Shown here piece after piece: positions 74 to 3,226 of a DNA stretch of 32,000 nucleotides (positions are counted from its first letter, which is position 1; each line of letters opens with the position of its first letter). Origin of the DNA: Candidatus Thorarchaeota archaeon (lineage in GTDB: Archaea; Asgardarchaeota; Heimdallarchaeia; Hodarchaeales; Hodarchaeaceae); the NCBI GenBank assembly GCA_048882505.1, contig JBHLRO010000005.1, forward strand, positions 30,001-62,000, read 5' to 3'. The position numbers were made by a program, and so were the translations under genes. Below the pieces are notes generated by a model. The model saw only the letters and a list, made by a program, of their open reading frames with translations. It had not been told where the DNA came from and did no database searches.

Positions 74-3000
74 CTATAGCGGTTCCGATTCATCCCAGCT
101 AAGGAAGTCATCCTTTCCCTTTTTAATCCCCATTGCTTCTCTCACGTACTCCTGTACCCTTCTTTCTTGCTCTTCTGGAGTTAAAAACTCCTCGAGTTTC
201 AAGATGGAAGATATATTCCGTCTCAAGCGTAGCAATTCCTCGGTTTCTTTTAGAGCAATATCATAGTAGAGTTTCATTTTTTCCTTCTGAGCGATTCTTA
301 AGCATCGATTTAACCAGAACTCAACCTCATCAAATTGAAAGGTCGCAAGATTGATTTTAGCTCGTAAGAGGTAGACTTGACACATCCCAGCCGAATATTG
401 ATTCGTTTCAGCCTTGAACTGCCACTCATTCAAACTTGTTAAAAGATTCTTTTTCCCGATTGCTGACGGATTACTCAACCATATTTTAAACTCTGATTCA
501 ACCAAGGCCCCCTGACAAACAAGCTGATACTCATCAGATAACCCCTCTTCATTCAATGCTGACTTCCATGCCTTCTCTGCAGACCCCCAATTTTTCTGAG
601 ATTCCGCTAATAATGCTTGTATCATATGATTGAAAGCTTTGACACGAGAATGTTCATATGGGGGCTTAGGAAGGCGGCGGATGAAGTGACTATTTGAGTT
701 TAGGATTTGGGTCTCCTTATGTATTTGGGCGATCCTAAACAAAGTTTCAGCAACCATATCATCGTTATCCAGAAGATCAAATACATCTAATGCCTTCTCA
801 TAGCACTGTATAGCTTCGAGGAACTCGCATTGTAGATAGGCAGTATTACCCTTCTCAAGTTCGACCTTTGCATCCGTTTCCGCCTGAACTAAAGCTAAAT
901 AATCACTAAAACCTAAATTTTCAATTTTAACAGCAGTGGAATAATCTGGCGCCTTCAAACGCAATATAAAATTGGACTCTCGGCGCTTTTTTTGAAAGTA
1001 TATTGCACCTATTATTAGGACGATAGCGCCAACTATTACTGCTGAAGCAAAATGAAAAATACTTAGACTGATAATTGGAAAACTCCAAACGTTGTTAGGG
1101 TCTGTGCCTGCCTTGTATTCATCAAGATTCGAAATCCAATCGCCGTCCAAATCTTCTTGTGCATCGCCTGCATATGTTACGTTGAGACCTACTTGGAATT
1201 CCCAAAGATCTGGCATCCCATCTTTATCCAGATCGTTGGAGGAAAACATTTTATCGATATACTGAAGATTCGGAGCTCCGCTCATCGGATTTAACGAGTT
1301 GCTTTCTACAAAGTTGAGGATCCAATCCCTGACTGGGTATATTCCGAAATCTTGATTGAGATAAATATAGGGAGTATCGTCCGCCGCGATTTCCTCAATT
1401 TCATTATACATTTTCTGTCTTTTGTTTGGATTCTGCTCGACCGCTGCATCCTCGATATAAGGATTCAAGATTTGATTATTATAGGATAGCAGGAAGGCAT
1501 AAATCCCATAGTTTCCGTGTAGGTAAGGTGCAACGAAATTATCGGGATCAGGAAAGTCTGCAATCCATCCACAAAGATATAATGGGTAATTTCGTTGCCA
1601 ATATGAATCACGGAAGTTGCTCCTTTCCATGGGATGGACTAGAACTTCAATATCAACGTTAAGTTGTGCTATGGAATTTGCCAATTGAAGAAATGCTTGA
1701 GCTTGGACTTCAGAGTCAGCAGAGTAAGACAGTTTAATTGTTCCTTTCCAACCAACCAGTTCAAAAAGTGCCTTAGCAGCTTCTATATTGTAATTAGATA
1801 TGTATCCAGCTTCAGAAAGACTTTCATGATGACCTAGCATGTCTTCGGGAATTATACCCTCCATTTGTTTCCCAATTCCTTTAAAGACATTATCAATATA
1901 GACAGAAGCATCAAAAGCCATGGAAAAAGCTTTTCTAAAAAGAATAGAGGTGAACGGGTTTCCCTGACTTGCGGTTTCATTTCCTACTGAATATTTTTTT
2001 AGCAAGCTAGCATTATAGGTTGAATCCCCTGATTCAGAAATAAACTCACTTGGAATTGATTCCTTCAAGTTCATACCGAAATTGTAAGTTATAGGCATCG
2101 GACTTGTATAAACATTAACTCCCTCAAAAATCGGTTCTCCTGATGGTCTAACAACATCATAAACATCAGGTTTCTCAATGTATATCATATCTGCCTCCCC
2201 ATTCTTGAGATTTTGAATCCGAACTTCATCATCAGGAACTGATCTAATCTCGATCTCATCTACAGCGTGTATAGCAAAAGAATCCCACCAATTGACGTTT
2301 TTCTTAAGTACAACAACTTCTTCGTTAATGCTTTTAAGAATATATGGTCCTGTTCCAACTGAGTGGTTTGTCATCCAGGTATGGTGGGCTTTACTATGTC
2401 TATGTGATCCTGGCACAACCCCTGAATCTAGTGGACTGTGATTGCTGGCCAGCCCGAGTTTTGTATATCCAGGTAATGCGGAGAACCACGAGGCTAGGGG
2501 GACCATCCCAAATTCATCGTTACTGGTATTCTGCTCGTACACAGATGGTTTATTCTCGATAACAGCTTTCGGGGAAATTGCACTCGTTACGTAGAACGCT
2601 AGGGTGTGAATGAATGGGGAATAGGGTGATTCTAGGTTAATCTCCAGTGTGTAATCATCGATAACTACTATCCCATTTTCTGCCAAGTAATCTTCTGCTT
2701 GTGTAACGTTTGGATTATAAAATTGTGAATATTCGGCTGCGCCTCTTATAACCTGTGCTATCATCCAAGCGGGTCCCCAAGGATCGGACACCAGAATAGC
2801 TCTATCAAGAGAGTATTTCATAACATAAGCGTTTAAAAGAACGCCATCATGGAACGTTACATTCTTTCGAAGCGTGAATGTATACTTTAACCCATCTGAC
2901 GAAATGTCCCAGTTTGTAGCCAAGATTCCTTGAAGGTTCTCAGTCGAATTTCCCTCGTAGCCAACAAGGGTTTCGTAGATGATTTCAATAACTGTGCTTC

Positions 3001-3226
3001 CGCTACTTTCATAATTGATCGCGGGATCGAGGGTCTCGATATCCCTTGGGATGCTGATTGTTTCCCAAATAAATTTATTGGGATTCTTGAGTTCTCCCTT
3101 GGTCGTATTTGCCCTTGCAATTGGCACGAAACCCAGGTTTAAAAGAAGAACACCAAGGATTATGAGTGGAATAATAGGTGTTATCCATAAAAGGTTTTTA
3201 CTAAATTTCAGATCCACGCTGCGCAT
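74..3226 (-). CDS. Family-5 (peptide/nickel) solute-binding protein fused to TSP3-like Ca-binding repeats, a TM helix and a cytoplasmic TPR-like domain
   Basis: N-terminal hydrophobic signal. SBP_bac_5 motifs: TLDPA, IYETLVGY, LATNWDISSDGLKYTFTLRKNVTFHDG, GTGPY, FRKAFSMAFD, GWIADFPDPDNF. DLDKDGMPD...DLDGDWISNLDEY..GTDP repeats at 1091-1234. Hydrophobic helix at ~995-1082 followed by KKRR. Helical TPR-like C-terminus. Confidence 0.85.
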   Translation of the reverse strand: MRSVDLKFSKNLLWITPIIPLIILGVLLLNLGFVPIARANTTKGELKNPNKFIWETISIPRDIETLDPAINYESSGSTVIEIIYETLVGYEGNSTENLQGILATNWDISSDGLKYTFTLRKNVTFHDGVLLNAYVMKYSLDRAILVSDPWGPAWMIAQVIRGAAEYSQFYNPNVTQAEDYLAENGIVVIDDYTLEINLESPYSPFIHTLAFYVTSAISPKAVIENKPSVYEQNTSNDEFGMVPLASWFSALPGYTKLGLASNHSPLDSGVVPGSHRHSKAHHTWMTNHSVGTGPYILKSINEEVVVLKKNVNWWDSFAIHAVDEIEIRSVPDDEVRIQNLKNGEADMIYIEKPDVYDVVRPSGEPIFEGVNVYTSPMPITYNFGMNLKESIPSEFISESGDSTYNASLLKKYSVGNETASQGNPFTSILFRKAFSMAFDASVYIDNVFKGIGKQMEGIIPEDMLGHHESLSEAGYISNYNIEAAKALFELVGWKGTIKLSYSADSEVQAQAFLQLANSIAQLNVDIEVLVHPMERSNFRDSYWQRNYPLYLCGWIADFPDPDNFVAPYLHGNYGIYAFLLSYNNQILNPYIEDAAVEQNPNKRQKMYNEIEEIAADDTPYIYLNQDFGIYPVRDWILNFVESNSLNPMSGAPNLQYIDKMFSSNDLDKDGMPDLWEFQVGLNVTYAGDAQEDLDGDWISNLDEYKAGTDPNNVWSFPIISLSIFHFASAVIVGAIVLIIGAIYFQKKRRESNFILRLKAPDYSTAVKIENLGFSDYLALVQAETDAKVELEKGNTAYLQCEFLEAIQCYEKALDVFDLLDNDDMVAETLFRIAQIHKETQILNSNSHFIRRLPKPPYEHSRVKAFNHMIQALLAESQKNWGSAEKAWKSALNEEGLSDEYQLVCQGALVESEFKIWLSNPSAIGKKNLLTSLNEWQFKAETNQYSAGMCQVYLLRAKINLATFQFDEVEFWLNRCLRIAQKEKMKLYYDIALKETEELLRLRRNISSILKLEEFLTPEEQERRVQEYVREAMGIKKGKDDFLSWDESEPL

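Follow-up and report, generated by a model that had tools for sequence, protein, structure and literature searches.

Near one end of the window, the 32,000-nucleotide stretch of Hodarchaeales DNA analysed here, lies a minus-strand gene for a 1050-aa protein that carries a family-5 binding protein (SBP) at its N-terminal side and an all-helical, TPR-like tail at its C-terminal side. Its features, with their positions in the window and the evidence for each, are as follows.

74..3226, minus strand: whole gene for the SBP5, stalk, membrane helix and tail protein, 1050 aa plus stop (open reading frame list, translation).
3107..3202, minus strand: hydrophobic N-terminal stretch, aa 9-40, preceded by basic residues; signal peptide or anchor (hydropathy scan).
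1247..3094, minus strand: family-5 (cluster C) SBP ectodomain, aa 45-660, with 10 N-glycosylation sequons (PF00496, AlphaFold, Foldseek).
1091..1243, minus strand: pair of TSP3-like calcium-type repeats with DxDxDG motifs at aa 665 and 692, spanning aa 662-712 (junction alignment).
995..1081, minus strand: transmembrane helix, aa 716-744, with the motif N-x-W-S-F-P before it and KKRR after it (hydropathy, junction alignment).
77..994, minus strand: all-helical TPR-like tail, aa 745-1050, of which aa 1038-1050 are disordered (AlphaFold, structural matches).
941..958, minus strand: LKAPDY juxtamembrane motif, aa 757-762 (alignment A1; pLDDT 96-97).
713..865, minus strand: TPR pair, the sole sequence-recognisable one, aa 788-838 (Pfam TPR_12, profile search).

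The gene encodes a real type I membrane protein of Hodarchaeales (Heimdall-group Asgard), which spans the membrane once and is conserved. Translation runs through all 1050 aa without an internal stop, and hydropathy scanning found two hydrophobic segments: the N-terminal one, present also in full-length orthologues and WD40-type relatives, and a second at aa 713-747, followed by KKRR. Ten N-x-S/T sequons lie before the membrane helix and one after it; WD40 relatives have 12-16 before the helix against 0-2 after. Together, the N-terminal signal, the basic residues after the helix and the sequon asymmetry support a topology with the SBP outside and the tail inside. Pfam, hydropathy and AlphaFold thus bear out the architecture proposed in the initial annotation (signal, SBP, DxDxDG repeats, one membrane helix with KKRR, tail), and the sequon and charge logic behind its topology holds. 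Pfam TSP3_bac (PF18884) scored 13.9 bits on the protein against a cut-off of 25 (E 0.05); the TSP3 model matched a family member with more repeats at E 3.4e-8. Pfam and NCBIfam searches found no catalytic domain in the protein, as had been claimed, and aa 745-1050 returned TPR-type matches and no recognised signalling output domain from Pfam, NCBIfam and fold searches. A convergent S9 oligopeptidase B-like gene was dropped as a hint to a peptide ligand because it is not conserved at other loci.

The ectodomain is predicted to be an intact, complete two-lobe family-5 binding-protein fold. SBP_bac_5 (PF00496) covers aa 98-572 (E 4.3e-67, 227 bits against a cut-off of 32.4), and the AlphaFold model of aa 41-716 has a pLDDT of 91.5. 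Foldseek matched this model to solved binding proteins of the DppA, GsiB, HbpA, OppA and NikA type at E 1e-36, with TM scores by target of 0.73-0.89 against DppA, GsiB/YliB, 5u4o and others. The initial annotation called the domain peptide-binding, which proves to be an assumption: the ectodomain is equally far (~16-21% identity) from binders of peptides, glutathione, nickel/metallophores, opines and signal molecules. Among the named family-5 specificity groups (NikA, GsiB, OppA, DppA, CntA and others) none passed its NCBIfam equivalog cut-off; the best, nikA, reached 104 bits against 393, and the others fell far below theirs.

The tail sets this protein apart from canonical anchored archaeal SBPs. 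Those compared here (P0170, P0169, P0184 and the seven other family-5 SBP genes of the source genome) are 40-51% identical in the core, with P0170 the nearest unfused relative at 49%, and the likeness extends to a C-terminal motif, ESGSLNPMS. Both kinds of protein have an N-terminal signal and a C-terminal helix, but canonical members end a few basic residues past the helix, often after a Thr-rich linker, and lack the DxDxDG stalk and the tail. In the source genome, all seven stop right after the C-terminal membrane helix and basic patch, in keeping with what the initial annotation had said of archaeal family-5 SBPs; the tail is thus an addition.

The tail was modelled with high confidence as a TPR-like solenoid. 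AlphaFold placed 14 helices in its 306 aa (pLDDT 92.3, pTM 0.86), and the best structural matches were all TPR solenoids: TSK/BRU1 (Z 16.2), APC subunits, DdvA, PlcR/NprR/Rap and LGN. The TPR-like character first read from the letters is borne out by this model; the matches themselves are generic, as VIA-align Z scores of 13-16 are near background for helical-repeat folds, and Foldseek gave probability 1.0 with E values of 5e-3 or worse and nothing in the PDB at E <= 0.001. AFDB clusters and a feature search of the ESM Atlas likewise yielded generic TPR proteins only. At the sequence level, TPR_12 matched aa 788-838 (E 1.1e-5, 25.9 bits) under its cut-off of 30.1, no Pfam model of the TPR clan exceeded its gathering score, and TPR_1 and TPR_2 stayed below 19 bits. 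The tail family profile matched consensus TPR proteins in a sequence search against the PDB at positions 40-71, in that TPR pair alone. Across 56 tails, P760 (P16 in alignment A1) is invariant, and at least 90% of the tails keep A15, D17 and Y18. In one soluble relative, HisKA and HATPase_c domains follow the homologous region. An uncontrolled homodimer prediction with two copies and alignment A1 scored 0.00, which counts neither for nor against dimerisation. By its model the tail resembles peptide-binding TPR scaffolds and sensors and could bind partners; TPR solenoids can also have purely structural roles.

The SBP-tail fusion is real and conserved. When the genus was searched with the tail, 8 of its 22 genomes, among them one assembled as a 3.16-Mb single contig, yielded open frames as long as the fusion (1039-1074 aa), and full-length alignment confirmed six fused orthologues besides the window gene at 53-60% identity. 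Thirteen further SBP-tail protein clusters share 53-66% identity over the tail and 54-72% over the ectodomain. An assembly chimera, missed stop or frameshift falsely fusing separate SBP and downstream TPR genes, a reading favoured by the draft state of the source genome (83 contigs), is vanishingly improbable and for practical purposes refuted by independent assemblies, since the frame is uninterrupted in eight genomes, the single-contig one included, and in the 13 further independent clusters, and the junction is a precise domain boundary common to WD40 and NosD family members. The doubt that the initial annotation had raised about the fusion is thereby settled in its favour. Comparison of the fused orthologues with the window locus revealed no conserved neighbourhood that could suggest a partner. 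Around four close fused orthologues, the only gene common to the loci encodes an acyltransferase. A 506-aa TPR protein, a candidate partner of the tail, is encoded two genes downstream of the SBP-tail gene.

Stalk, helix and tail belong to a previously undescribed ectodomain-TSP3-TM-tail family, which we define here. The junction alignment placed the start of the shared module exactly at the first DxDxDG repeat, where homology with members carrying WD40, NosD or unrecognised ectodomains begins, and a WD40-tail protein that BLAST aligned with aa 662-1033 is 44% identical there. The window protein bears the family marks (a DxDxDG stalk, W-S-x-P before the helix and LKAPDY after it, by junction alignment and motif scan), and its tail of ~290 aa after the single membrane helix matches WD40-type and SBP-type members at E 1e-60 to 1e-120. 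The tail matched 175 representative clusters, and in about 57 of them DxDxDG repeats and a membrane helix precede the complete tail. As ectodomain these carry WD40 (41), NosD beta-helix (5), SBP5 or a domain of no recognised type. Genes for NosD beta-helix proteins also occur near several tail genes. Full-length tails are confined to one Hodarchaeales genus, where 16 of 22 genomes carry 1-5 copies each. Neither of two genomes of the sister family has one, and in the rest of the 301 genomes of the phylum the search gave weak soluble-TPR matches and no full-length tail. Stalk, membrane helix and tail are a genus-specific reusable module, usually placed behind a WD40 propeller, and not a one-off fusion, a point that the initial annotation had missed.

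The closest relatives of the module are the Hodarchaeales WD40-TSP3-TM-tail proteins, exemplified by P0013, P0014 and P0036, which database names describe only as 'WD40 repeat protein' or 'hypothetical protein'. They have the stalk, N-x-W-S-x-P, LKAPDY and a ~300-aa tail in common with the window protein, share its taxonomic range and are 40-45% identical to it in the tail; their ectodomain is a WD40 propeller array on 3-13 stalk repeats, where the window protein has an SBP on two. In a tail tree rooted on soluble relatives, the SBP-fused tails group in a single clade (SH-aLRT 99) that branches within the WD40 tails, a topology indicating one origin of the fused form out of the WD40-type lineage.

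Many WD40-tail proteins are encoded right after a separate SBP gene, whereas in the window protein the SBP is itself the ectodomain. A PF00496 gene lies directly upstream on the same strand in 10 of 18 WD40-tail genes, with gaps of 8-145 bp, and adjoins one more in divergent orientation; about half of WD40-tail genes have no adjacent SBP gene. Counted as distinct cassettes with an assembled upstream side, 6-7 of 12 show the pairing. With 12-33 PF00496 matches per genome (some genes counted twice) among ~4000 genes, a number estimated from genome size, chance adjacency would be well under 1%, although adjacency is no proof of physical contact. The partner SBPs, which are themselves anchored in the membrane, fall into three subfamilies with less than 30% mutual identity, one of which holds P0170, and a second SBP/WD40-tail pair of this kind occurs in another assembly. 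The pair at L019/L025 gained no specific support as the direct ancestor of the fusion: its tail is 44% identical to that of the window protein, against 45% for other WD40 tails, and the same genome also carries a fused gene. The source genome has a single tail gene and no WD40-tail paralogue, so the cassette logic is borrowed from relatives. Full-text searching found no published description of the SBP-stalk-TM-TPR architecture or of the SBP/WD40-tail cassette.

No transporter of the expected kind accompanies the SBP-tail gene. Neither an OppBC/DppBC-type permease nor an OppDF-type ATPase is encoded in the 52 kb around it (C5:10001-62000), and a search of 344 kb around 23 tail genes, in which the positive control was found, detected no Opp-type permease or oligo_HPY ATPase. 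Six of the seven nearest unfused relatives of the ectodomain are orphans too. The absence of a linked Opp/Dpp permease noted in the initial annotation therefore extends well beyond the sequence first seen, and the adjacent opp operon that would have spoken against its receptor reading was not found. The window's own ABC operon (6305-10997) was considered as the missing transporter and rejected, being of the CysTW/ModB/WtpB/PhnU type. Transporter sharing by orphan SBPs is known from bacteria, and the SBP-tail protein might likewise serve one of the four Opp/Dpp-type importers that the source genome encodes elsewhere, the tail being an add-on for regulation or tethering. In favour of this, selection maintains an intact SBP fold, and one related unfused SBP, P0172 (43% identity), has Opp-like permease and ATPase genes close by, at a locus that also holds a pyruvate kinase 70% identical to the window's. 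We nevertheless regard such a role as improbable: all four Opp-type operons come with an SBP of their own, the 23 tail loci have no Opp-type gene in their vicinity, the sole nearby ABC operon is of a type unpaired with family-5 SBPs, substrate delivery needs neither a rigid stalk nor a conserved 300-aa tail, and the pairing of SBP with WD40-tail genes argues for another partner.

An explanation to which we give about even chances is that the SBP-tail protein is a transporter-independent sensor or scaffold in which an SBP has replaced the propeller. The finding that the same module usually sits behind a WD40 propeller, with an SBP gene upstream, supports a receptor or scaffold role indirectly. 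The two-gene SBP/WD40-tail cassette would be a transporter-independent sensing or docking pair, in which the SBP, once loaded with ligand, engages the membrane protein's propeller. A partner-type SBP would then have replaced the propeller on a WD40-type module, and the single fused chain would serve the same purpose. When ligand closes the SBP lobes, the position or clustering of stalk and helix may change, upon which the TPR tail would bind or release a cytoplasmic partner through its groove. The proposed output is non-enzymatic.

A rival to the sensor or scaffold explanation is surface binding or adhesion with a cortical anchor. On that account the family is a set of surface binders on a stalk stiffened by calcium, the TPR tail only fixes or positions them, for instance by anchoring them to the cytoskeleton or to membrane protrusions, and the SBP captures a substrate or surface ligand without signalling. 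Adhesins, envelope and surface-layer proteins often contain WD40, NosD beta-helix and TSP3 repeats, the protein has no enzymatic output domain, beta-helix genes lie close to several tail loci, and several paralogues per genome with varied ectodomains would fit a surface repertoire. It leaves unexplained, however, why SBP genes from three unrelated subfamilies lie upstream of WD40-tail genes. The tail is also as conserved as the ectodomain (53-66% against 54-59%) and has invariant juxtamembrane residues, which points more to a specific interaction than to passive anchoring, though anchors may be conserved as well. On balance we think that a role in surface binding or adhesion alone is unlikely.

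The use of a binding-protein fold for sensing has bacterial precedents, from which the window protein differs in several ways. Bacterial SBP-dependent or SBP-fused sensors include LuxP-LuxQ, TorT-TorS, ChvE-VirA, MBP-Tar and BvgS, and our sequence comparison revealed SBP5 domains fused to methyl-accepting chemotaxis domains (P0212, P0231). In these systems, as in the use proposed for the window protein, the binding-protein fold senses, either as a separate partner or as part of the receptor. Their output is a kinase or methyl-accepting domain and they are usually dimeric and multi-helix, whereas the window protein is archaeal and combines a calcium-repeat stalk and one helix with a TPR tail that is non-catalytic; unlike in the bacterial sensors, the putative partner receptor domain in the tail family is a WD40 propeller. 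On the cytoplasmic side, LGN/Pins, PlcR/NprR/Rap, the TPR sensor domains of STAND proteins and the anti-sigma factor DdvA have right-handed TPR-type solenoids of similar length. The tail has no detectable sequence kinship with these scaffolds beyond one TPR pair and differs from them in being membrane-tethered and in having its own invariant residues.

Sensing by binding-protein folds is known in bacteria and eukaryotes, and Hodarchaeales are the archaea placed closest to eukaryotes. The window protein joins such a fold through a single helix to a non-catalytic TPR tail, as a member of an archaeal, genus-specific family with swappable ectodomains. More speculatively, Hodarchaeales may possess an adaptor-type mode of surface sensing in which the receptor contains no enzyme, ligand-loaded orphan SBPs dock on WD40 receptors and TPR tails recruit partners, with cytoskeletal, trafficking or ParA/MinD-like proteins as candidate recruits and the window protein as the one-chain version; we offer this broader scheme as a tentative possibility. 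Even if the tail were only an anchor, the family would remain a useful marker of cell-surface organisation in Hodarchaeales. If the tail recruits partners upon ligand binding, the closest archaeal relatives of eukaryotes would have a form of sensing without two-component kinases, and the family would supply a concrete, expressible and testable set, although the organisms are uncultured: the ectodomain, the tail, and the pairs of SBP and propeller. If true, the adaptor scheme would give prokaryotes a counterpart to the single-pass receptors of eukaryotic style, which pass on their signal through scaffold recruitment.

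The gene at window 74-3226 (minus strand) is an unbroken open reading frame of 1,050 aa that joins a family-5 SBP ectodomain to a stalk, a membrane helix and a TPR-like tail. The initial annotation had described a receptor-like fusion of an SBP, TSP3 calcium repeats, a single membrane pass and a TPR-like domain, and ORF, Pfam, hydropathy, sequon and DxDxDG-motif analysis recovered every element in its place.

Features of the SBP-tail protein (gene on the minus strand)
aa 9-40, hydrophobic segment (hydropathy scan)
aa 98-572, SBP_bac_5 (Pfam, E 4.3e-67)
aa 665 and 692, two DxDxDG-type motifs
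aa 692-712, TSP3_bac (Pfam, weak)
aa 713-747, hydrophobic segment (hydropathy scan), followed by KKRR
aa 788-838, TPR_12 (Pfam, sub-threshold)

Ten N-x-S/T sequons lie between the hydrophobic segments and one past the second. NCBIfam NikA, GsiB, Opp and Dpp models match the protein only far below threshold. The public gene call starts three residues downstream of the ATG at 3226, and a 93-aa ORF with a TTG start (window 3208-3489, minus), overlapping the gene start by 19 nt, is probably not a gene.

The SBP-tail fusion is real and conserved, and an assembly chimera is excluded for practical purposes. A tail-restricted search among proteins of similar length returned 11 SBP5-tail proteins from Heimdallarchaeota and Hodarchaeales assemblies (1,039-1,049 aa or truncated at contig ends; tail identity 53-66%). 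Searching with the ectodomain added three more, and ectodomain identity among fused proteins is 54-72%. The tail search found fused-length open frames (1,039-1,074 aa) in 8 of 22 same-genus genomes, including one assembled as a single contig of 3.16 Mb, and full-length alignment confirmed six fused genes besides the window's own (53-60% identity, ~1,000 aa). All seven other family-5 SBP genes in the window's genome end a few basic residues past a C-terminal membrane helix, as do the nearest unfused ectodomain relatives (40-51% identity).

Structure prediction describes both folded parts. The AlphaFold model of aa 41-716, from an alignment of 44 relatives, reached a pLDDT of 91.5, and the SBP fold is intact in it. 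It matches solved cluster-C binding proteins (Foldseek E ~1e-36, TM by target <=0.89), namely H. pylori DppA, E. coli YliB/GsiB, HbpA, DppA, MppA, OppA, NikA, CntA and AapF with its bound signalling molecule, at 16-21% identity throughout, too distant to give a ligand class. The tail model (aa 745-1050, 56 relatives; pLDDT 92.3) has 14 helices and a high-confidence juxtamembrane stretch. Its Foldseek and VIA-align matches are TPR-type solenoids only: TSK/BRU1 (Z 16.2), APC subunits, PlcR/NprR/Rap, LGN/Pins, a STAND TPR sensor and the transmembrane anti-sigma factor DdvA. Scores of this size are close to the background that helical repeats give; the modelled tail is best described, cautiously, as a TPR-like solenoid of no specific known family and without a catalytic domain.

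Stalk, helix and tail form a module found across a wider family. An exhaustive tail search gave 175 representative clusters in two groups. About 57 carry the full tail directly behind a membrane helix, with DxDxDG repeats before it. A WD40 propeller is the ectodomain in 41 representatives and a NosD-type beta-helix in 5; others have SBP5, two an ectodomain of unknown type, and a few are short or truncated. The other clusters are soluble TPR proteins of 500-800 aa that match tail positions ~50-290 at 22-30% identity, one of which runs on into HisKA and HATPase_c. In the junction alignment the SBP core ends at a common motif in fused and unfused forms; past it the fused form changes to the stalk, a W-S-x-P motif, the membrane helix and an LKAPDY motif, all common to WD40, NosD and unknown-ectodomain members. 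NosD or right-handed beta-helix genes also adjoin or neighbour tail genes at three related loci (L014:1-2797, L022:6587-7864, L027:7-1602), and this ectodomain type occurs tail-fused as well (representatives P0094 and P0144).

Separate SBP genes accompany many tail genes of the WD40 type. We clustered ORFs, from our own simple calls, at 23 tail-gene loci of related genomes. For ten of 18 WD40-type tail genes the immediate upstream neighbour, 8-145 bp away and in the same orientation, is a family-5 SBP gene, and one more has a divergent upstream SBP gene; Pfam assigns the upstream representatives to PF00496 (cluster 'a', 2e-37; cluster 'b', 1.2e-40; P0170). When near-identical loci (>=70% identity) are merged, 14 distinct cassettes remain, among them six with an upstream SBP, one with a divergent SBP and two cut by a contig end. 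With 12-33 PF00496 matches per genome (some genes counted twice) among ~4,000 genes, a number assumed from genome size, chance adjacency would be well below 1%. The partner SBPs form three subfamilies with <30% identity between them, and of all unfused relatives the third (P0170) stands nearest to the window's ectodomain (49% identity). Another assembly has a same-subfamily pair in which the gene after the SBP encodes a WD40 protein with a signal peptide and runs off the end of its contig. ParA/MinD-like P-loop ATPases (Pfam AAA_31, ParA) lie convergent and just downstream of four WD40-tail genes, three at near-identical loci and hence few independent cases, and close to two more.

ParA/MinD-like ATPase genes near WD40-tail genes at related loci
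L017:9123-9872, convergent
L021:7245-8018, convergent
L024:3305-4072, convergent
L036:406-1152, convergent
L023:15470-16321, within 4 kb
L033:13951-14793, within 4 kb

The fused form has a single origin in the tail tree. When the tree is rooted on soluble relatives, the 11 SBP-fused tails all group together as a single clade (SH-aLRT 99) that branches from within the WD40-type tails. The simplest history, judging from these sequences, would be a one-time replacement of the propeller by an SBP of the partner kind, yielding a one-chain version of the two-gene cassette.

Full-length tails are confined to the window's genus in a survey of 301 genomes sampled across the phylum and of all 24 available for the order. 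Of the genus's 22 genomes, 16 carry them, at 1-5 copies each; the genomes compared are kin, and such counts are not independent. Both sister-family genomes lack them, and elsewhere the 301-genome sample gave only weak soluble-type tail matches. The window's genome has one tail gene, in SBP form. Taxonomy here rests on the homologues' source names, which for family members read Hodarchaeales, Heimdallarchaeota or phylum-level 'Promethearchaeota'.

Several observations concern the neighbouring genes and other SBPs of these genomes.

Neighbouring genes (C5, the window's contig; L009, the fetched locus) and SBP5 genes with swapped Pfam model order
C5:25871-27391 (L009:13871-15391), minus, 506-aa MalT-like TPR gene, ~2.7 kb outside the window, beyond its start
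C5:27779-29854 (L009:15779-17854), plus, S9 prolyl-oligopeptidase/oligopeptidase B-like gene (Peptidase_S9_N 5.8e-107)
C5:139689-141569, swapped-order SBP5, window's genome
C20:1386-4259, swapped-order SBP5, window's genome
C6:42491-44443, swapped-order SBP5, window's genome
L017:13424-15361, swapped-order SBP5, relative
G136:C2:75778-87840, swapped-order SBP5s, relative

The 506-aa protein, whose gene is the second one downstream of the SBP-tail gene, may be a partner of the tail or related to it; hhalign aligns its last 100 aa with tail positions 196-291 (probability 66%, E 5.8e-5). Related TPR proteins of 804-836 aa, one with a CN_hydrolase domain, are encoded directly downstream of WD40-tail genes at L027 and L035. 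The S9 gene is convergent with the SBP-tail gene, ends ~220 bp from its 3' end and shows no conservation at orthologous loci. Between L013/L015 and L014/L016, otherwise collinear close relatives with 85% identical proteins, the SBP-tail gene is flipped relative to the flanking acyltransferase and 173-aa genes. In the swapped-order SBPs, model positions ~213-356 precede 2-212, an order that points to circular permutation in an SBP5 subfamily; one of these genes lies within an Opp-type operon, and relatives' tandem arrays reach six genes.

No Opp-type transporter is linked to the fusion. The initial annotation had seen no permease genes upstream of it, and tblastn upheld this: eight Opp-type permease and two ATPase segments, with the positive control recovered, gave no match in 52 kb around the SBP-tail gene or in 344 kb around 23 related loci. 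Nearest unfused relatives have Opp-like genes near one of seven contexts. The ABC operon at window 6305-10997 (minus) encodes a fused two-domain permease of the CysTW/ModB/WtpB/PhnU type, two different ATPases and a PhoU_div (DUF47) protein, without a binding-protein gene; not being an Opp-type system, it is an unlikely partner of a family-5 SBP. Pyruvate kinase genes lie 1.5-7 kb from same-subfamily SBPs in three genomes.

Pyruvate kinase genes near same-subfamily SBPs
window 4763-6238, plus
L020:1-962
L040:3457-4944

At L020, Opp-like permease and ATPase genes stand between the SBP and the kinase (70% identical), and the neighbourhood may be the remnant of an ancestral transporter locus.

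With architecture, conservation, origin and absence of transporter linkage established, we infer function by analogy; literature searches found no description of this architecture. We consider it rather unlikely that the protein only binds at the cell surface, cortically anchored and without signalling, and about equally unlikely that it works as an orphan SBP for an importer encoded at a distance. The window's genome encodes four complete Opp/Dpp-type operons, all of which include an SBP of their own besides two permeases and two oligo_HPY ATPases, and four orphan SBP5 genes, the SBP-tail gene included. LuxP-LuxQ, TorT-TorS, ChvE-VirA and MBP-Tar are bacterial SBP-dependent sensors, which the pairing of an orphan SBP with a single-pass membrane protein resembles, and the SBP-tail fusion resembles SBP5-MCP proteins, SBP-fused sensors found in our ectodomain search. 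The output differs, a TPR solenoid in place of a kinase or methyl-accepting domain. Because of this likeness to SBP-dependent and SBP-fused sensors we favour, with about even confidence, an SBP-tail protein that would act as a ligand-dependent scaffold or receptor.
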